From the NCBI GenBank assembly GCA_028280605.1, contig JANQLL010000185.1, positions 1,567-65,566 on the forward strand: DNA of 64,000 nucleotides. Direction: 5' to 3'. The notes under the pieces were generated by a model. It was not told the origin of the DNA, did not search any database, and saw nothing but the letters and a program-made list of their open reading frames with translations. Positions 23,285 through 56,191 of the stretch are shown one piece after another. Every line of letters begins with the position of its first letter. Position 1 is the stretch's first letter. The DNA is from Candidatus Gastranaerophilales bacterium (GTDB taxonomy: Bacteria; Cyanobacteriota; Vampirovibrionia; Gastranaerophilales; JANQFW01). The position numbers and the translations under genes were made by a program.

Positions 23285-24164
23285 CCATAATCTCCTCTAT
23301 AGCACGGGCAAGTCTTTCAAAGTCGTGCATAGATAATTTTTCACCTCTAATAGTAGGAGAAATACTTGCCTGTGACAGTGATTCATTAATTACGCTATTA
23401 TCAAAACCAGAATTAACAAGTGCATTTTTAATTGTTTTTCTTCTCATTCTAAAGCCAGCTTGAATTACCCGCCTGAATAACTTAGGATTTTTAAGGTCAA
23501 TTGCCGGTTTTTCTCTAACTTTTAATTTAATCAAAGCCGAGTCAACCTTTGGCGCAGGATAAAATGACTTTGCCGGTACTTTAGCAATCAGTTCCGGCTC
23601 AGCCCAATAATTTACAAGAATAGATAATAACCCATATTCTTTTGATGCGGATAGTTCATTAGCAACAATTCTTTGTGCTACTTCGTATTGAACCATTAAC
23701 ATTATTTCCTTAATCATTTTCCTGTTTGAATGTTCAAGTTCATCGATTTCGCCAAGCAAATGTACAATAATCGGACTTGTTATATAATAAGGTATATTTG
23801 CAATTATTTTTATTGGATTATTGGTTAATTCACTTATAGCAACTTTAAGAATATCTTCATTAATTATTTTAAGATTTGAAAAGTTTAATTTTTCCAGCTC
23901 TTCTATGGCATCTTCATCAATTTCTACTGCAAAAATTTTTGCAGCCAACCGGGCTATTTTTTCTGTAACAAAACCAATCCCGGGACCTATTTCTAAAACT
24001 ACATCGTCTTTGCTCAAAGATGCTTCGTCTATGATTTTCTCAATTATATTTGGGTCTAGCAAAAAATTTTGCCCTAACCGTTTTTTTGTTCTAAATTTTT
24101 TTGCCCTTTTTAAATAATTCAATTTTAATCCTCTTAGGCTATTATCTAAAATAATAATACTCAA
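23265..24164 (-). CDS. rsmA: 16S rRNA (adenine1518/1519-N6)-dimethyltransferase RsmA/KsgA
   Basis: LGQNFL and EIGPGIG motifs. Confidence 0.9.
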   Translation of the reverse strand: MSIIILDNSLRGLKLNYLKRAKKFRTKKRLGQNFLLDPNIIEKIIDEASLSKDDVVLEIGPGIGFVTEKIARLAAKIFAVEIDEDAIEELEKLNFSNLKIINEDILKVAISELTNNPIKIIANIPYYITSPIIVHLLGEIDELEHSNRKMIKEIMLMVQYEVAQRIVANELSASKEYGLLSILVNYWAEPELIAKVPAKSFYPAPKVDSALIKLKVREKPAIDLKNPKLFRRVIQAGFRMRRKTIKNALVNSGFDNSVINESLSQASISPTIRGEKLSMHDFERLARAIEEIMDGKSKS

Positions 24165-24291
24165 TAAAAAAAAATTATGCTAAGCTTACAAAAACATTAA
24201 CAATTATTTTACTTTATTTGTGAATAAGTTGATAATACAATAAAATCAACTATAAATTAAGATAAAAAATGGAAAATATGGAAAATTAAAA

Positions 24292-25653
24292 ATGCAGCAA
24301 TTATTAGAAAAAAATAAAAAAAGTCAAGTAATAACTAATAAAAATCAGCTGATGGAAATATTTTTCAGCGGAATAAAACCTGATACGGATTTTAAAATTG
24401 GCTTAGAATTTGAAAAACTTGGAATTGATAATAAAAATTTTATAGCAAAACCTTTTTCAGGAGAAAATGGCATATTTGAGTTTTTGGAAAATTTTAAAAC
24501 AGAACACAATTTATCAACCCAAAGCTCTGATGAGCTTGTAAATAATATCAATTATAAAGAAGGCATAATAACGATTGAGCCGGGAAGTCAGATTGAATAT
24601 AGTATCAATCCACATAAAACCATTCAAGAATTAAGTACAATAGTTGCAAATTATAATAATATTACCAATGAACTGGCTGAAAAGATGAGTATAAAATGGA
24701 TTGGACTTGGAAACCAACCTGTATCTACACATGGAAATATTATTATAATTCCAAAAGATCGTTATAAAATAATGACAGAATATCTTCCAACAAAAGGCAG
24801 CCGTCCTTTTGTTATGATGAGAGAAACTGCCGGAATTCAAGCTGCATTTGATTTTAATTCAGAAGAAGATGCAATAAATAAGCTACGCTTATCCGTTGGA
24901 TTATCTCCTATAGTTACGGCTATGTTTGCAAATTCTCCAATTAGGGAAGGTAAATTATCAGGTTTTAAATCTTATAGGGCTTATGGGTGGCTAGATACAG
25001 ACGAGGATAGATGCGGCTTGATCTCACCTGAGTTATTTAAAAATAATTTTTCTTTTGAAAATTATACCGATATAATGCTTGATTTGCCTATGATATTCCT
25101 TCAAAAAGAAGGGAAATGGTTTAATATGAAAGGCATGCCGTTTAGAGAATATTTGAAAAGCGGATATAAAGGTTATCATGCAACCATTGAAGATTGGCAT
25201 TTGCATTTAAGTTCATTCTTCCCGGAAGCCAGGCTGAAAAACTATATAGAAGTCAGGTGTACTGATTGCCAGAGAGAAAATTTAATACCGGCAGTGCCTG
25301 CTTTATGGAAAGGCCTGTTATACAATCCTGATGCTTTAGATGCTGCTTGGGATATTATCAAAAATCTTGACTGGAGAGACTATAGCGATTTAAGGTTCTC
25401 TGTGCCTAAACTTGGTCTAAAAGCTAAATGCAGATATTTTAAAGTTGTTGATGTTGCCAAAGAAATTATTAATATAGCTATGCAGTCTTTAAAAGAGCAA
25501 CAGATTACTGATGGTATTGATGAATCCATATATTTAGAAGAATTCAGTGATCTTGTTCGTCAAGGCTTATCACCTGCTGATATTCTGATTGAAAACTGGA
25601 ACGGTGCTTGGAATAAAGATATTCGTAAGTTAATAAATTATGCATCTTTATAA
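24292..25653 (+). CDS. gshA: Glutamate-cysteine ligase, GCS2 (plant/cyanobacterial) type
   Basis: 453 aa. IEPGSQIEYS and FPEARLKNYIEVRCTD motifs typical of the plant-type GCL family. Confidence 0.8.
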   Translation: MQQLLEKNKKSQVITNKNQLMEIFFSGIKPDTDFKIGLEFEKLGIDNKNFIAKPFSGENGIFEFLENFKTEHNLSTQSSDELVNNINYKEGIITIEPGSQIEYSINPHKTIQELSTIVANYNNITNELAEKMSIKWIGLGNQPVSTHGNIIIIPKDRYKIMTEYLPTKGSRPFVMMRETAGIQAAFDFNSEEDAINKLRLSVGLSPIVTAMFANSPIREGKLSGFKSYRAYGWLDTDEDRCGLISPELFKNNFSFENYTDIMLDLPMIFLQKEGKWFNMKGMPFREYLKSGYKGYHATIEDWHLHLSSFFPEARLKNYIEVRCTDCQRENLIPAVPALWKGLLYNPDALDAAWDIIKNLDWRDYSDLRFSVPKLGLKAKCRYFKVVDVAKEIINIAMQSLKEQQITDGIDESIYLEEFSDLVRQGLSPADILIENWNGAWNKDIRKLINYASL

Positions 25654-25742
25654 TAATCAGAAAGCTTATTACTTGCTTCACCTATTATTTCAAACATTCT
25701 GCTAACAGCATTATAAGTTTTTTCATACAAACATTACCTTGC

Positions 25743-25849
25743 TATACTCCCACTAAAATACTTTTCAGATTATTAAATCGAGTTAAAGTTAATAAAATAA
25801 ACTATTCTCTGGAAAGAGTAATCTGAAATTTAATTGATGAGCAGTATAA
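25743..25849 (-). repeat. 107-nt imperfect-palindrome repeat, copy A
   Basis: The reverse complement differs from copy C (43590-43696) at 3 of 107 positions by hand alignment. Confidence 0.85.
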
Positions 25850-25895
25850 GTAATATAGTTATTATAATATATTAAACTTAAAATTGCGTTCTGTT

Positions 25896-25958
25896 AGTCT
25901 GATTGAATGCTATAACAAAGATGTTCGCAAGTTAATAGATTACTTGGGGCTGCTATAA
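25896..25958 (+). pseudogene. Displaced, diverged duplicate of the gshA 3' end
   Basis: Translates SLIECYNKDVRKLIDYLGLL*, versus the gshA C-terminus ILIENWNGAWNKDIRKLINYASL*. The 27-nt core is 23/27 identical and all differences are transitions. Confidence 0.6.
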
Positions 25959-26054
25959 AACCTAAATTTTTGTAAATTTTTAATGTAAATTTATCAATAT
26001 TATATATGTTTGCATTTAAATAAAAAAGGAAGTTCTGTAATATAGGTAAGTTTT

Positions 26055-26921
26055 ATGGCTTTTAATGCAGTTGGTGGCATAGCGCAAGTAAATGGACGAC
26101 CTGGCCCTTATGATAATAGGGTTAAAAATCCAAACGTTAGATACGGCAGAAATGCAGTAGCGAATTATGCTGAATATAATGCAAGGTTAAGCTTGCCGGC
26201 TGATCAATTTGATGCTCCGGATGTTAACGCTTTAGCTGGAGACTTGGCAGATTCTTTACAAGTTGCTAAAAGAATCAGTACAACAAAAATTCTACAAGCT
26301 TACGGAATAATTAATCCAAAATTTGCAGATGTAATCTTAAAAAGAGATGAAGGGCGTTTAGCTCAACAAAATGAAAGTACAGGGCAACGGTTAGATCAAC
26401 TAGAGGGTTGGACTAATGAGCAGCACAATATAATTGAAAATGCAGCTCCTATTGGCTTTAAACTACAGTATCTGCCAGAGGATAAAGTAACCCCAAAAAA
26501 TTTAAATAAATTAGCACTCATGGCTGCATCATTTGAAGATTTAGGCAAGAAAATTTCAATACCGGTAGTCCAAATAACTCAAGGCCTACAGCAAATCTTT
26601 GGTAAAAAAGTTTCGGCTGAAGCTCTTGATGCAAATAATGATGGTCAAATTGATATTGCAGAAAACGCTACTTCTATTTTAATAAAAGATATGGCAGATA
26701 AGCATTCAACAGATGATGTTGTAGCAACGGGCAAGCTTGACTTACAAGCAAAAGACATAGATGGTACTTATACAAATACTGGCGAAACTAATATTTGGTC
26801 CTTTTTAAAAACTGATAAGATTAGTGAAACAAAGCAACTTATTACTCAAATTTATAATGCTTTTCAATTAGATAAAGCAAAAGAAGAATTTTTAAGTGAT
26901 GAAAATAATACCATACAATAA
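26055..26921 (+). CDS. Hypothetical protein with one EF-hand-like calcium-binding loop
   Basis: 288-aa ORF. DANNDGQIDIAE (26628-26663) fits the DxNxDGxIDxxE EF-hand loop. No signal peptide. Confidence 0.6.
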   Translation: MAFNAVGGIAQVNGRPGPYDNRVKNPNVRYGRNAVANYAEYNARLSLPADQFDAPDVNALAGDLADSLQVAKRISTTKILQAYGIINPKFADVILKRDEGRLAQQNESTGQRLDQLEGWTNEQHNIIENAAPIGFKLQYLPEDKVTPKNLNKLALMAASFEDLGKKISIPVVQITQGLQQIFGKKVSAEALDANNDGQIDIAENATSILIKDMADKHSTDDVVATGKLDLQAKDIDGTYTNTGETNIWSFLKTDKISETKQLITQIYNAFQLDKAKEEFLSDENNTIQ

Positions 26922-27054
26922 CCATATATAGAGAATGCTCTTTTCTACTTGTTTAGTAAACTTTTTGTAACAATCATTCAACTTTCATGAAATACTTTAA
27001 CAAATATGTTATACTATATATATAGCATATAAATAATAGGTAGGTGTATTGGTC

Positions 27055-27507
27055 ATGAAAATAACACAATACGTTAAAACTCTATTTTTTATTTTGTGGA
27101 ATATGATAACATTCCTATGTTTAATTATTGCCCCGCAAAATTTAAATTCGGTGAAAGAACTTTGTTTATCTGTTCTTAAACGTATAGATAGTTATTTTTA
27201 TAATATATTTTTATATTTAAAAGAATTAAAAAAGAAAATAATAATAAATAAAAACAATAAAGCTGATGCCTCATCAGCACAACCTATTAATAAAAGTAAA
27301 AAACAAGTATTAAACTCGTTTGATATTAATAATAATATATTAAATCAAGCAGTAAAATCTTCAAAACGCTTATCTAACAACAAATTAAAGGATGCGCCAG
27401 CCACGCAAAATTTAATTTCAAAACAGCACTTTTTCCGCTTACAGGATAAGTGTGCCTTTTTATACTCTTTTGTAAGCAAAAACCATTGCAGTCTATATAT
27501 TTTTTAA
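27055..27507 (+). CDS. Small N-terminally anchored K/N-rich protein, paralogue 1
   Basis: 150 aa from the ATG at 27055. TM helix LFFILWNMITFLCLIIA. C-terminal LKDAPATQNLISKQHFFRLQDKCAFLY is shared with 55706-56191. Confidence 0.55.
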   Translation: MKITQYVKTLFFILWNMITFLCLIIAPQNLNSVKELCLSVLKRIDSYFYNIFLYLKELKKKIIINKNNKADASSAQPINKSKKQVLNSFDINNNILNQAVKSSKRLSNNKLKDAPATQNLISKQHFFRLQDKCAFLYSFVSKNHCSLYIF

Positions 27508-29251: not shown

Positions 29252-29294
29252 GTAAAAATTTAACCTTTTTTGCTTTTTTATTATTAAAATTTTA

Positions 29295-29399
29295 TTATAC
29301 AGGTTTTCAATTAAATTTCAGATTACTCTTTTCAGAGATTAGCTTACTTTATTAACTTTTACACTATTTAAAAATCTGAAAAGTATTTTAGAAGTAATA
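29295..29399 (+). repeat. Imperfect-palindrome repeat, copy B (diverged)
   Basis: About 85% identical to copy C by hand alignment. Lies between the rhodanese stop and the DUF1007 start. Confidence 0.75.
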
Positions 29400-43357: not shown

Positions 43358-43589
43358 ATAATTGAGATTTAAAAAACATTAAGGATTATTAAGTATTGTT
43401 TGCTATAAACATGCTGATTTGTATGCATCAAAATTTTATTGAAAATATTATTAATTTATATCTTTTTGATTTTATTTTTTTTTAAAGATAATAATAGTCC
43501 ATTTGATTTAGCAATTATTTAGAAAACTTTGTTTTTATAATATTGGAGATAAGGATGAAGCAAAAAGAAAAGGGTAAGAAAAAAGCTAA

Positions 43590-43696
43590 TTATACTGCTC
43601 ATCAATTAAATTTCAGATTACCCTTTTCAGAGAATAGTTTATTTTATTAACTTTAACTCGATTTAATAATCTGAAAAGTATTTTAGTGGAAGTATA
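43590..43696 (+). repeat. 107-nt imperfect-palindrome repeat, copy C
   Basis: 104/107 identical to the reverse complement of 25743-25849. Internal perfect pairing TTTCAGATTA (43611-43620) with TAATCTGAAA (43667-43676). Confidence 0.85.
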
Positions 43697-48716: not shown

Positions 48717-48791
48717 AATTTTATTAATAAAATATTGAATTTCTTTTATGTAATATATATCATAATTTTAATAAGTAAAAAGTAGTATTAA

Positions 48792-48880
48792 AATAGAATA
48801 ATTGGGAAACTTCGGTGAAAATCCGAGGCTGTGTCGCAACTGTAAGGGTAAAACCTAAGCCAGAACACCACTATTCTATT
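48792..48880 (+). promoter_or_regulatory. Cobalamin riboswitch aptamer (compact form)
   Basis: GGGAAAC..GGTGAAAATCC..GCTGTGTCGCAACTGTAAGGG..AGCCAGAACACC core with B12-box-like element. P1 pairs AATAGAATA (48792-48800) with TATTCTATT (48872-48880). Lies upstream of the btuBCDF-like genes. Confidence 0.8.
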
Positions 48881-49116
48881 CTATCTTACTCTTGCGATGC
48901 ACAAGAAAAGGAGATAAAAGATGATAAAATTAGAATAGCACAATCTATATTGACAGACTTCTTATTTTAAGTTTGTTCTTTTGTATAAAATTCTCAAAAC
49001 TTAATAATTTATACAAAAACCTAATTTTAAAAGTCAAATAAGTAATATAACATTTATTATTACCTATTTGATTAATGTTGATTTGTTTTATATATAGAAA
49101 GAACTAAAAAGAAAAT

Positions 49117-51129
49117 ATGAAAAAGATTTTAATAACAGCAGCAACACTTAGCATATTAAGCATAGGACAGTCATTTGGTGCAGATATAGATAATGTTAAA
49201 CCTGATACACAAAAAATAGAACAATGTAAATTTATTGAATTCGGTAAAGTAGAAGACTGCCAAGTATATAGTATAGATAACATGCCGCAAGATATCAAAA
49301 CATCAACCAGCAGCGCAGAAATTATTAATTTAAACGATGATAATAACGCTCAAAAAACTACTTTAAATGAGCTCCTTAATGACTATACAGGTATTACAAC
49401 GCAAGACCTGGGTTCTGCCGGCATGACAAGCTCAATAAGAATCCGAGGCTGGAATAGAGTTGGCCTTACTCTTGACGGTGTAAAAATTGACAACCCCAGC
49501 TATGGCTATGCAGACTTAACACACTTTTCTAATAAAGATTTAGAAAGAATTGAAGTAATAAAAGGTCCTCAAGGAAGCATACATGGCGATAGTACGCACG
49601 GTGGCTTAATCAGTTTAACAACCAAACAAGGCCACGGGAGTCCAAAGATTGACTATGAGCAAAAATTTGGTTCATATAGTACTTTTCAAGAAGGTGTTTC
49701 ATTTTCAGGCGGTAATACCTCGGCTGATTATTATATTGGCGTATCAAGACTAGACACAAACGGTGGAGCTATAACTACTTCAGATGGCAAATCCAAACGA
49801 GATGATTACTCTAACTTTACAATATCTGCAAATATAGGTAAAAGATTGATGGACACTAAAGCTGAACTAAGAAATACCTTCAGATACATTGAAGCTAAAA
49901 AGAATGTTGGTATAAGTGAAAACTATTTTGCAGGCACAACAGTATTTGATCCAAATGCAAGAAGCCAGAACACACAGATAATAAACTCAACAACATTTAG
50001 CCATAAGCCATTTAGCTGGTATGATTATAATCTAAAAACCGGCTATGTTGGATTTGAGAACTTTTTTGAAGACTTTATAGACAGCTATGGTGTAGATACT
50101 AACAATAATAACAATAAAGCAAGAAATGACAGGTTTATTGTTTCTACCCAACATAATCTAAAATACAAAGATATAGATACGTTTTCTTTTGGTTATACAT
50201 TGGAGCATAATAATTTTAACCAAAAATCATTTGGTGACGGAGTTTGGGGTTACAACGACAGATTCTCTAGGAGTTATACAACAGGGCATGTATTTTTTAA
50301 TAACAAAATTAACATAAAAGATACCCTAATAATAAAAGCCGGCACTGGTATAGAAGATTCTAAATGGGGTACTTACGCAACACCAAATGTATCAGGTGCA
50401 TTAATATTGCCAACACCGTTTATAGATAATTCTTATACCAAGCTAAGGTCAACATACGGTAATTCTATTAATTATCCTACGCCATTTCAGTTTGGCGGTG
50501 TTTTCTTTGGCTCACCGGCAGGCAATCCTAACTTAAAGCCAGAAAAATGCAGCGGTTGGGATGTCGGCGTTATTCAAAGCTTATTCAATGATAAAATTAA
50601 CTATGAGTTCGCTTATTTTGACAATAACTATACTGATTTAATAGATTGGAGCGGGACAACCTACTATAATATTTCAAAAGCGCAGACTTCAGGCTTTGAG
50701 AATACTTTAAAAGTTAACTTTTTATCAGGTATTTACGGTTTAGCTAATTACACCTATACTAATAATAATGGCTTTAATAATAACGACATTGGAGGCGTGC
50801 CAAGAAACAGGTTCAACTTTAAGCTTGGCTATTCACCTAAAGAAAGATATAATGTCTTTGCTACAGGAACCTCAGCTTCCAGCAGAGCCTATAACACAAA
50901 TGGTGCCAGAGTTGACGGATTTTTTAAACTAGCACTTGGTTCAAAGGTTAGGTTATTTAGTGTTGACAATGCACACGTTTATCTGTGGGGAAGGCTTAAT
51001 AATATCCTCAATGACAGATACGAAGTCTACAAAGGATACAAGCATCCTGGCATTAGCTTTATAACAGGATTGCAAGTTAAATTTAACCTGCCTGACTTTA
51101 AGAAAAAATCTGCGCCTGATAAAGTATAG
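49117..51129 (+). CDS. btuB: TonB-dependent outer-membrane receptor, BtuB-like
   Basis: Signal peptide, plug motif IEVIKGPQGSIHG, long beta-barrel region. Riboswitch context. Confidence 0.8.
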   Translation: MKKILITAATLSILSIGQSFGADIDNVKPDTQKIEQCKFIEFGKVEDCQVYSIDNMPQDIKTSTSSAEIINLNDDNNAQKTTLNELLNDYTGITTQDLGSAGMTSSIRIRGWNRVGLTLDGVKIDNPSYGYADLTHFSNKDLERIEVIKGPQGSIHGDSTHGGLISLTTKQGHGSPKIDYEQKFGSYSTFQEGVSFSGGNTSADYYIGVSRLDTNGGAITTSDGKSKRDDYSNFTISANIGKRLMDTKAELRNTFRYIEAKKNVGISENYFAGTTVFDPNARSQNTQIINSTTFSHKPFSWYDYNLKTGYVGFENFFEDFIDSYGVDTNNNNNKARNDRFIVSTQHNLKYKDIDTFSFGYTLEHNNFNQKSFGDGVWGYNDRFSRSYTTGHVFFNNKINIKDTLIIKAGTGIEDSKWGTYATPNVSGALILPTPFIDNSYTKLRSTYGNSINYPTPFQFGGVFFGSPAGNPNLKPEKCSGWDVGVIQSLFNDKINYEFAYFDNNYTDLIDWSGTTYYNISKAQTSGFENTLKVNFLSGIYGLANYTYTNNNGFNNNDIGGVPRNRFNFKLGYSPKERYNVFATGTSASSRAYNTNGARVDGFFKLALGSKVRLFSVDNAHVYLWGRLNNILNDRYEVYKGYKHPGISFITGLQVKFNLPDFKKKSAPDKV

Positions 51130-51189: not shown

Positions 51190-52173
51190 ATGACAAAAAT
51201 AAAGCAAAAAAAACTAATAATAACGATATGTATAGTAATATTCTTGGGCAGTTTCTTTTTATCTGTTTTGTACGGCGGAACTCCAATCAGCTTAAAAGAC
51301 TTAAAAGATTGGAGTTTTGGCGTACAAACAGATAATACTTATATCATAGAATTATTTAGATTTCCAAGGGCAATAAAAGCTGTTATCGCAGGCTCCTGCC
51401 TTGCTATATCCGGGTTGTACATGCAAACGATTACAAAAAACCCGATAGTTGATCCATACATAACGGGCATTTCTGCAGGGGCAGGTATTGCTCTGGTATT
51501 GGGAGTCTTATTTAATATTTCACCGTTTTACTATCCTGTTTTAGGATTTGCAGGCGGCCTGCTGGTATCCTTACTTGTTATTTGCTTTGTAGGGGTCAAC
51601 AGATTTAGCTTGGCAAAGCTTGTGTTGGTTGGTATTTCTGTTAATTTATTAATAAGTTCTATAATATCGCTATTAATTCTCCTAAACAGAGATAAGGCCC
51701 ACAATATGATCCTTATATTGTCCGGGAATCTAAACAGTTCTTTATTTGTTTACGAATCACTATACATAATTTTTGCAGTTATAATGCTTCTTTGTCTTTA
51801 TATAACTCCAAAATTAAACTTTTTAAGGCTCGATCACAATATTGCAAAATCAATAAGTACAAAATCTAAAACATATAATATAGTATTTTTAATACTATCA
51901 TCTGCTTTAGCATCGCTTAGCGTATGCGCAGCAGGAATTTTAGGATTTATTGGAATAATAATTCCTCATATTTGCAGACAATTATTTGGGCTGGATTTCA
52001 GATGGCTGTTTTTTGCAGCCTTACTACTGGGACCCAGCCTTATTTTATTATCCGATTATTTAGCAAGATCTGTTGTCTATCCAACCGAGCTACCTATTGG
52101 TATAATAATATCTATATTAGGAGCCCCTTTATTTATTATATTTATTTTAGTAAAAGGAAAAAAGTTCTTATGA
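51190..52173 (+). CDS. btuC: FecCD-family ABC permease, BtuC-like
   Basis: 327 aa with about 9-10 TM segments. ATGA overlap with the next gene. Confidence 0.85.
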   Translation: MTKIKQKKLIITICIVIFLGSFFLSVLYGGTPISLKDLKDWSFGVQTDNTYIIELFRFPRAIKAVIAGSCLAISGLYMQTITKNPIVDPYITGISAGAGIALVLGVLFNISPFYYPVLGFAGGLLVSLLVICFVGVNRFSLAKLVLVGISVNLLISSIISLLILLNRDKAHNMILILSGNLNSSLFVYESLYIIFAVIMLLCLYITPKLNFLRLDHNIAKSISTKSKTYNIVFLILSSALASLSVCAAGILGFIGIIIPHICRQLFGLDFRWLFFAALLLGPSLILLSDYLARSVVYPTELPIGIIISILGAPLFIIFILVKGKKFL

Positions 52174-52892
52174 TAAACATAAAAAACGGGCAAATCTGTT
52201 TTGAAAACAAGGTTTTTCTTGATAACATAAATATAACACTGCCTAAAAATAAGTTTACGCTTATGCTTGGTCCGAATGGTTCAGGAAAAACTTCTATTTT
52301 AAATATAATTGGAGGGGTTACAAAATTATCAAAAGGGCTTTTTTCTAACAGTTTTTCAAAAACGATTTTAATACCGCAAAACACATCATATCCGCAGGAT
52401 CTAACACTTTTTGAGTATTTATCTTCTATTTATTATGATTCTAATTGGAAATGGAGCATTTCAAAAAAGGAAGAGAATGAAATATATTTTATTTTAAATA
52501 AATTAAATATCGCAGATAAAAAAGATCTTTTCATGAATCAGCTCAGCTCTGGTGAATTGCAGATTGCCAATACCGGCTTATGCCTTCTTTCTAAAGCAGA
52601 CTTTATTATACTTGATGAACCGGGTTCAAACCTTGATATAATAAATCAAATTATGCTCTTAGACATATTAAAACAGTTAACATCACAAAATATAACCATA
52701 CTGGGTGTAATGCACGATCTAAATCTTGCTGCAAAGTATGGAGATTATTTTATTTCAGTCTCAAGAAAAGGCAAAGTATTCTCTGGATTGCAAAAAGAGA
52801 TTTTTTCATCTGAAAACCTAACAGATGTCTATAATTATAATATTAATGTAGTGGAAGTTAATAATGAAATTCTGGCGCACCCTAAAATTTAG
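52170..52892 (+). CDS. btuD: ABC transporter ATPase, BtuD-like
   Basis: Walker A GPNGSGKTS, signature LSSGELQ, Walker B IILDEP. ATG at 52170; the longer ORF from 51924 runs inside btuC. Confidence 0.85.
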   Translation: MINIKNGQICFENKVFLDNINITLPKNKFTLMLGPNGSGKTSILNIIGGVTKLSKGLFSNSFSKTILIPQNTSYPQDLTLFEYLSSIYYDSNWKWSISKKEENEIYFILNKLNIADKKDLFMNQLSSGELQIANTGLCLLSKADFIILDEPGSNLDIINQIMLLDILKQLTSQNITILGVMHDLNLAAKYGDYFISVSRKGKVFSGLQKEIFSSENLTDVYNYNINVVEVNNEILAHPKI

Positions 52893-55042: not shown

Positions 55043-55705
55043 TCTAAAATTACCCTCTTTATTACTTATTAATGTACTTTTTTGACGAGTATGTCCACGT
55101 AAATTCTATACTTATCAAGCTTAAAAATAATCATTCATTTTAAGTAAAAGGGTATATATAATGTACTGAGAAAACTGAACCAGAAAAAATAAAAAGTGTT
55201 TCCCTGATAAAATAAATTAAATAAAGAATGAAATCATCTAAAATTGTTTCATCCAATTTAGTTTCTTTTTTGTCAAAAATCAGAGAAGACTGATTATATA
55301 AAACTTTTGAATCATACGACATTAAAGACTTTGTTGATAGACCCTTAAAATATACTTTAACAAAATTAATTGATATATCTTGTTTAAAGGATATTGATGG
55401 TGGGAATTTAAACGAAGATATTGCAAGGCAAAGGGAATGCCCCAAAATCCTTATTTCAAAGTAAAAAAAAGAATACAAGAGCTGAAGAAAGAAAATTAAT
55501 AATATACAAAATGAATAATATAACAGTGCAAGCACAAAGCAATCAAATCTTTTAAGCTAAGCGTGCTTTAGAAAATTTTTCCTTGATTTTTTATTAAGAA
55601 ATGCTACAAAATTAGCATTTTCACATTTCAGGAGCCTGCGGAAATTTTAAAAAAATGCTAAAATATATATAAAGTATACAATTGAAATTAGTGAGTGTAT
55701 TGGTC

Positions 55706-56191
55706 ATGAAACTATCACAATACATAAAAACTTTATATGCAATCTTGTGGAATCTAATAGCATTCCTATGTTCAATTATTTCATTAAGTAATATCACGAA
55801 AAAGAAAACACCTTCTTTTTCGCTTTTAGTATATGCTTACAATATTTTAACCATGACTTATAAAGATTTAAATGAACTTATAAATAATATATTATCAAAA
55901 CAAAAACATAATAACACTGCTGCAACAACGGCAGTAACAAACCCTATATACAAAAACAAAAACTCTGTATCAAACAGAGTAAAATCTAATAACATATTAA
56001 TAAACCAAGCACTAAAAAGTGCAAACTTATTATCAACCTTGAGATTAAAGGATGCGCCAGCCACGCAAATGTTAATTTCAAAACAGCACTTTGTTCGCTT
56101 ACAGGATAAGTGTGCCTTTTTATACCCCTTTTGTAAGCAAAAGTCATTGCAGTTAATAAATCTTTTAATTTTTACATCAACACATAATTGA
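55706..56191 (+). CDS. Small N-terminally anchored K/N-rich protein, paralogue 2
   Basis: ATG at 55706. TM helix LYAILWNLIAFLCSIISL. C-terminal LKDAPATQMLISKQHFVRLQDKCAFLY is shared with 27055-27507. Confidence 0.5.
   Translation: MKLSQYIKTLYAILWNLIAFLCSIISLSNITKKKTPSFSLLVYAYNILTMTYKDLNELINNILSKQKHNNTAATTAVTNPIYKNKNSVSNRVKSNNILINQALKSANLLSTLRLKDAPATQMLISKQHFVRLQDKCAFLYPFCKQKSLQLINLLIFTSTHN

Follow-up and report, generated by a model that had tools for sequence, protein, structure and literature searches.

The DNA analyzed here, which we call the window, is a stretch of 64,000 nucleotides (nt) from a Candidatus Gastranaerophilales bacterium (assembly GCA_028280605.1, contig JANQLL010000185.1, positions 1,567 to 65,566), and our subject is the 3′-end of its gshA gene together with the DNA that follows it. 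We find that the end of gshA recurs as a decayed copy that begins about 230 nt 3′ of the intact gene, that this copy was made from the gshA of the same lineage, and that it abuts a gene cassette which has a different place in a sister genome. The explanation that we favor is that the copied gene end (25887-25943) is a scar without function, left at the junction of an ordinary chromosomal rearrangement.

The window is AT-rich (32% G+C), and close relatives of its GshA protein are few. Only two were present in a collection of 5.8 billion proteins, at 87% (L002) and 83% (L003) identity, and the next closest after them, L004, is 54% identical. L002 and L008 are loci on one contig of the sister genome GCA_028277625.1, and L003 is a locus from the sister genome GCA_028282645.1. 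The best matches of the window GshA bear the names of Melainabacteria and of Gastranaerophilales metagenome-assembled genomes, at 45-54% identity. No relative closer than L002 and L003, and no metagenome match, turned up in the collections searched, and metagenome contigs scanned for a gene that would encode NKDVRKLIDY gave 0 matches. The features at the locus are given here with the labels used below.

24292..25653, + strand: gshA, an intact gene for a glutamate-cysteine ligase of the GCS2 family, 453 amino acids (aa), from its open reading frame (ORF) and PF04107.
25573..25641, + strand: E, the segment of live gshA that is copied downstream (codons 428-450), from alignments.
25654..25742, + strand: F, the native downstream flank of gshA, not an insert, aligned with L002.
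25743..25849, + strand: repeat copy A, a dispersed, hairpin-forming repeat of ~107 nt that resembles a miniature inverted-repeat transposable element (MITE).
25850..25886, no strand: an AT-rich spacer of 37 nt between repeat and copy, with no significant similarity to the relatives' flanks.
25887..25943, + strand: E′, the decayed copy of gshA 25573-25641, which has lost 12 nt in frame and carries 12 substitutions over 57 nt.
25942..26921, + strand: the relocated cassette, a conserved upstream region plus a 288-aa ORF (26055-26921), from homology to L008.

Two Homologous Gene Ends

In the alignment of E with E′ the codon phase is kept, a single gap of 12 nt is needed, and 45/57 bases are identical (79%); the DNA bounded by the two copies measures 245 nt. 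The live gshA C-terminus reads ...ILIENWNGAWNKDIRKLINYASL, and 25896-25958 translates in an open frame to SLIECYNKDVRKLIDYLGLL. The core of the similarity (25615-25641 versus 25917-25943) is part of a 29-nt repeat, D1, and has 23 of its 27 nt identical; all four differences are transitions, two of them synonymous and the others giving I/V and N/D. The two gene ends and the 27-nt core with its four differences had been read from the letters of the window in the original prediction, and all of this holds. A second collinear block, repeat D4, pairs 25577-25602 with 25891-25916, and the longest identical runs between the copies are 9 nt (CTGATTGAA, AAGTTAATA).

The proposal that these are two homologous gene ends and not a random similarity is borne out by the statistics. 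The local alignment of E with E′ scores 20. When the 401-nt intergenic region was shuffled 5000 times with its dinucleotides preserved, no shuffle attained that value (mean 9.5, standard deviation 1.3, maximum 18.5), and none of 4216 tiles placed elsewhere in the window, on both strands, scored above 15. When the last 87 nt of each of 55 ORFs were sought in the 600 nt downstream, only gshA gave such a match, and the remaining ORFs scored 13.5 or less. When a full-length GshA profile was run against six-frame segments, the 24-aa copy peptide obtained 2.5 bits (E = 6), which is not significant; the protein profile is blind to so short a piece, and the evidence for homology is therefore at the nucleotide level. 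The two stretches are homologous gene ends, not chance similarity in AT-rich DNA. A second gshA end is absent from the 6 kb downstream of gshA in L002, L003, and L004. The downstream DNA differs in all three, so that none of them represents a clean empty site.

The Live End and the Origin of the Copy

The PF04107 domain extends across the whole of GshA, full-length orthologs are present, and 1574 homologs are found at E ≤ 1e-20; the TIGR01436 model scores GshA at 380 bits, under its equivalog cutoff of 463 bits. The 87% and 83% identical orthologs end ...ENWNGGWNQDISKLIDYADL and ...KNWNGSWSRDISRLINYSSL, and the C-terminus of the live protein is of the same type as those of the relatives (…NWNGxW..DI..LI.Y..L*). 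Collinearity of the window with L002 and L003 continues through the gshA stop codon, and sliding identity over the collinear region reveals no shift and no recombination breakpoint against either; a breakpoint inside gshA was rejected as a candidate on this flat profile. Because the live end and the ~85 nt after it are collinear with L002, we place the live end in its ancestral position, as judged from these alignments.

Upstream of the gene, the divergent intergenic region between rsmA and gshA (24084-24250) is 97-98% identical to L002, above the flanking coding DNA (about 85-90%), and it holds promoter-like hexamers (TTTACT, 17 nt, GATAAT).

The copy is 79% identical to the live end of the window vs 65% (37/57) to each of L002 and L003. 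Five sites set the window apart from L002 and L003, which agree with each other there, and at all five the copy carries the window base. It sides with the window at 9/10 sites that differ from L002 (sign test, p = 0.011) and at 8/8 sites that differ from L003 (sign test, p = 0.004), and its best protein match among 120 GshA C-termini is the window's own. The copy derives from the gshA end of the window lineage, after the species split. As it groups with the live end of the window, it is not an older or foreign allele. A foreign short form of the gene had been considered, since several distant GshA proteins (P0102, P0050, P0028, and others) also lack ~4 residues in this region; it was rejected because of the same grouping, and the shortness of those few C-termini is a coincidence.

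Decay of the copy is evident at several levels. It carries 11 unique changes at sites that are invariant across the three live genes, and each of the four P-A-D-I codons has received a single-base hit that changes the amino acid, so that the PAD motif, kept by nearly all of the 120 homologs, is destroyed. The 12-nt loss is located between two TGGAAY direct repeats and fits, as expected, a slippage deletion. Most likely the copy is non-functional and decayed after the duplication.

The Relocated Cassette and the Junction

The 288-aa protein has only a weak EF-hand-like match, and its gene stands alone with its own conserved upstream region. A 77% identical ortholog lies on the gshA contig of the sister genome, with its ORF at L008 10001-10858. 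By blastn, the cassette at 25955-26921 corresponds to L008 9902-10858 at 80% identity, and local alignment shifts its left limit to ~25942 in the window and about 9883 in L008 (ACTTGGG… vs ACTCGGG…). The homology to gshA ends at the Tyr codon 25941-25943, and the copy lacks the last three gshA codons and the stop. Thus, the right edge of the copy meets the left edge of the cassette within 1-2 nt (gshA homology to 25943, cassette from ~25942), and the final four codons and stop of the copy's frame (TTGGGGCTGCTATAA) therefore come from the cassette; they are not gshA, and their homolog in the sister genome is the region that precedes the 288-aa gene. The copy had been described as an in-frame repeat of the last ~20 codons of the gene including a stop. 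It is in frame to codon 450, but the stop and the four codons before it belong to the cassette, and that description thus reflects in part a coincidence of the fusion.

The cassette has a different place in the sister genome. Positions 1-9874 of L008 correspond to window 23565→13718, and the cassette homology resumes ~28 nt further. The cassette there adjoins the RcpC end of a 12-kb block (RcpC…pilus genes…bioA-ispE-rsmA-gshA), and its orientation with respect to the block is inverted. The suggestion that a DNA-joining event is marked at the 3′-end of gshA is thereby upheld, in that a gshA segment is fused to a cassette that is relocated with respect to the sister genome. A gshA-like relic is absent from the cassette junction in the L002 genome, and neither a reciprocal junction left of window 13719 nor a continuation past the 288-aa gene reached significance. 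A 15-nt match to the L002 flank that had been picked out by eye failed the shuffle test. Homologs of the 288-aa gene were examined in L008, L005, L009, and L010 and have a different genomic context in every genome, from which we conclude that the gene moves often.

The DNA Between the Copies

The ~240 nt between the copies had been taken for an insert that contains the repeat. Repeat copy A is indeed present, but the stretch is composite and not all of it is insert, since the left ~85 nt after the live stop are gshA's own flank. After a 22-nt indel, window 25691-25735 aligns with L002 7377-7422, within the first 60 nt after the gshA stop of that locus, and the score of the flank match was reached by 1 of 5000 shuffles. 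MITE-related sequence as the cause of this match was rejected on direct check. The DNA 3′ of the copy has no similarity to F, and for this reason a tandem duplication of the gene end plus its flank was rejected.

Part of the flank overlaps a further, weak feature.

25653..25724, − strand: a possible weak relic of a HepT-like toxin gene, of which an internal part without either end is present (..YEKTYNAVSRMFEIIGEASNKLSDYY..), from a sub-threshold Pfam match.

The only Pfam match of this fragment is to PF01934 (E = 0.0012, 19 bits, under the gathering cutoff of 23.5), and it spans 24 residues, model positions 24-47 of 120. A tblastn search of 7.3 Gb of plasmids gave only three annotated Leptospira HepT genes at a non-significant E of about 8, and NCBIfam, PADLOC, and a large protein database gave no match. 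HepT toxins have a C-terminal catalytic Rx4HxY motif and an adjacent gene for the MntA antitoxin; the translated frames near the fragment contain neither an Rx4HxY motif nor a nucleotidyltransferase ORF. The fragment probably represents the old remains of a toxin gene, and is at best a relic. The match (..EIIGEA..LS..) adjoins the gshA stop, and part of it appears to be conserved in the L002 flank.

The remainder of the intervening DNA is the spacer and repeat copy A, which has two further copies in the window.

43587..43696, − strand: repeat copy B, intergenic, 96% identical to copy A, with no duplicated gene end beside it.
29278..29391, − strand: repeat copy C, intergenic, 84% identical to copy A, with no duplicated gene end beside it.

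The inverted arms of copy A lie at 25743-25772 and 25819-25848, its termini read TATACT...AGTATA, and its predicted fold is a long hairpin (z = -3.2). The three copies have mutually unrelated flanks, and TA borders each copy on both sides. The sister genomes contain a copy at L008 17534-17665 and fragments at L003 5852-5982 and 1110-1148. The family thus comprises several dispersed, near-identical, short non-coding copies with terminal inverted repeats and a hairpin, and from these traits it is probably a MITE family. Rfam gave no match for the repeat, and a scan of metagenome contigs for both arms gave 0 matches. IS630/Tc1-mariner elements duplicate a TA target. The repeat resembles MITEs that may derive from such elements in its terminal inverted repeats, in its several dispersed intergenic copies in two species, and in the TA on both sides. 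It differs from them in that no autonomous partner was seen and no pair of empty and filled sites was found here. The tentative assignment to IS630 is drawn from the TA flanks. The family is common to at least two species of the lineage and interrupts short-read contigs, and L003 bears a ~100-nt, repeat-related insertion between rsmA and gshA.

The repeat is a bystander to the duplication of the gshA end. A search for the segment 25654-25895 next to other duplicated gene ends had been proposed; repeat copies B and C have none, and the idea that the repeat carries gene ends was rejected on that account.

A Probable Rearrangement Scar Downstream of gshA

We suggest that, after the split from the two sister species, a single-gene cassette of ~1 kb was joined to the DNA downstream of gshA, and that the join carried with it a copy, 57-69 nt long, of gshA codons 428-450. 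If the repeat inserted later, the source of the copy would have lain about 200 nt upstream. The copying could have been local and have taken place during the joining, by a template switch, by filler synthesis, or by a short tandem duplication whose second copy took the breakpoint. The gshA end would have stayed put, intact, together with about 85 nt after it, the copy would have decayed neutrally, and the MITE-like repeat would have inserted independently. We infer that copy and cassette arrived in a single event, with local copying during the join as the most likely source of the copy. Rearrangements that arise by replication-based mechanisms or by end joining can leave short duplications or templated insertions at their breakpoints. 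The likeness to the locus described here is that a stretch copied from nearby stands exactly at a novel junction between segments that are not neighbors in the sister genome. The differences are that the mechanism here is a proposal and that the reciprocal junction was not found.

Some points weigh against this explanation. The window and L002 differ by several other rearrangements, which prevents the reconstruction of a single clean event, and the ancestral position of the cassette is not assignable because its context differs in every genome examined. The collections searched contain no closer relative or population variant with an intermediate state. The copy has 12 differences vs almost none acquired by the live end after the duplication, a ratio that is rather high for neutral decay, albeit from small numbers. 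Finally, the join across the repeat (53 nt, 25770-25822) rests on one assembly and on the proximity of gshA to a 152-aa gene in L003. With these points taken into account, we still hold the rearrangement scar to be the probable explanation.

The first alternative is that gshA itself was broken after codon 450 and fused to the cassette, so that it ended ...DYLGLL*, and was rescued afterwards. The intact end (E, the tail, F, and the spacer) would have been re-installed from an unrearranged copy of the chromosome or from a sister strain. It would have been attached through homologous recombination at one boundary and illegitimately at the other, between 25886 and 25887, and the fused end would have been pushed downstream. 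This sequence of events would account for the junction between copy and cassette, which reads in frame to a nearby stop with a Y-x-x-L-x ending that fits the C-terminal pattern of the family, and for the window-specific bases of the copy, which are expected of a resident allele. Furthermore, homology-facilitated illegitimate recombination is documented and has been invoked for displaced 3′ gene ends (PMC5361080). However, two rare events and a donor are required, there is no microhomology between 25886 and 25887, and no intermediate is known. Comparison with L002 and L003 reveals no shift of identity and no breakpoint in gshA or its flank. Moreover, if the fused gene worked, nothing selected for its rescue. 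We therefore consider this order of events unlikely. Allelic replacement, which the original prediction offered as one explanation, does not stand as the main account and survives in this minority scenario only.

A second alternative separates the two events. The gshA end and its flank would have been duplicated in tandem on a small scale, the duplicate would have decayed in part by itself, and the cassette would later have landed, by coincidence, at its edge. Small tandem duplications and slippage deletions are common, and the 12-nt loss between the TGGAAY repeats is of that kind. On the other hand, nothing after the copy resembles F, which makes an extra deletion necessary, and chance must have brought the edge of the cassette to within 1-2 nt of where the copy ends. 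We regard this as slightly less likely again than a fusion followed by rescue.

The third alternative is that the locus is the relic of an integrative element, a prophage or island, that entered the 3′-end of gshA with a replacement end and was later deleted to about 240 nt. Direct repeats of a gene end do flank non-homologous DNA, the possible HepT relic, typical accessory cargo, adjoins the live stop, and three related genomes all differ within about 85 nt of the gshA stop. The icd/icdC pair that flanks e14 offers a precedent (PMC13626634). Against such an element, no integrase or other element gene was found among the ORFs scanned: 32 ORFs of the window searched against Pfam contain no integrase or transposase, nor do the called genes of L001-L003, and recombinase, phage, or defence genes were not found near the locus. 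Base composition around the locus is ordinary, and promoter, terminator, Rfam, PHROGs, PADLOC, and composition checks at the locus returned nothing relevant. The longest identical run between the copies, 9 nt, offers no recognizable core, although later divergence could have erased one. The DNA directly after the live stop is common to L002, which has no second copy, and the copy is not an outgroup to the orthologs. The end that would have been displaced continues into a relocated gene and not into the gshA tail or the old flank. Of the traits of such an integration, an unoccupied site in relatives was found, whereas a recombinase, an identical core, an element-derived live end, and a displaced original terminus were not. 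An integrative origin is thus improbable.

These results bear on the remainder of the original prediction, which had an element supply a substitute live end and displace the original. Alignment with the gshA loci of relatives, one of the checks it proposed, identifies the live end as the ancestral one and finds the tandem arrangement absent from three relatives. The live end and ~85 nt after it are collinear with L002, which speaks against a substitute end. Nor does the downstream copy behave as the displaced original, for it shares the window-specific base at 5/5 sites and runs into the relocated cassette, not into the old flank. The notion of a small element that repairs its target, or of the remnant of an island, is not supported, given the native flank and repeat copies B and C, which have no gene ends beside them; of the recombinases that it suggested looking for elsewhere in the genome, none was found among the neighboring ORFs scanned.

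Last, a mis-joined contig, in which a piece of DNA from another place or another strain was put after gshA through the repeat, is very improbable: Logan contigs do break inside copy A, at 25769 and 25823, and the 53 nt between are not independently bridged, but both flanks are reproduced at 100% in independent assemblies, the right one from two sequencing runs, the copy is left-truncated within its own contig whatever the join and is thus a real fragment, gshA has the 152-aa gene as a neighbor in L003 too, and the three repeat copies have distinct flanks in one contig. In detail, Logan contig L001 spans gshA and reaches 25769. L006 picks up at 25823 and matches the window at 100% identity across the copy and the 288-aa gene, and the contig L007 of a second sequencing run has the same starting point as L006.

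Comparison With Known Systems

In E. coli K-12, the 15-kb prophage e14, which has an integrase, is located in the 3′-end of icd and carries a replacement end (Hill et al., 1989, as described in PMC13626634). By the same account, icd extends into the prophage, and a C-terminal pseudogene, icdC, is found at the far end of e14 (PMC13626634). The arrangement is like the one reported here in that a diverged C-terminal fragment, in direct orientation, comes after an intact copy of the gene, with unrelated DNA between. It differs in that the gshA locus has no element or recombinase, the live end and its flank are ancestral, and the fragment lacks a true terminus and is fused to a relocated gene.

Orphaned 3′ gene fragments that arose by illegitimate or homology-facilitated illegitimate recombination have been described in effector/immunity arrays of the type VI secretion system and in Rhs loci (PMC5361080). 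As in those loci, a truncated 3′ piece lies downstream of an intact copy and is a fossil of a joining event with no function of its own. The orphaned ends of the arrays are older, represent different alleles, and belong to arrays under diversifying selection, whereas here a single 57-nt piece comes from the allele of the same lineage and from a housekeeping gene.

Beyond annotation the significance is small. The 24-codon ORF 25884-25958 should not be called as a gene, and the locus should not be taken as an attachment (att) site or as evidence for a gene-repairing mini-element. Comparison with the sister genome turns what appeared to be an insertion into a gene end into what is probably a breakpoint scar. 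The region downstream of gshA and the 288-aa cassette are places of frequent rearrangement in this lineage. Should the unlikely rescue scenario be true, illegitimate recombination would here have repaired a broken housekeeping gene in nature, in an uncultivated lineage that is related to Melainabacteria and has been little studied.

Additional Observations

Two paralogs at 27049-27507 (+) and 55682-56191 (+) have 49% amino-acid identity, and L003 has a homolog 5.5 kb downstream of its gshA. The DNA upstream of the two paralogs is also alike, with 78% identity between about 26989-27129 and 55641-55780. An adenosylcobalamin (AdoCbl, B12) riboswitch, RF01482, is predicted at 48779-48917 (+) with 61 bits, above the gathering threshold, upstream of a 670-aa ORF (49117-51129). 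The ORFs 51190-52173 and 51924-52892 (+) overlap by 250 nt, which could reflect a frameshifted or fused gene or an artefact of ORF calling.

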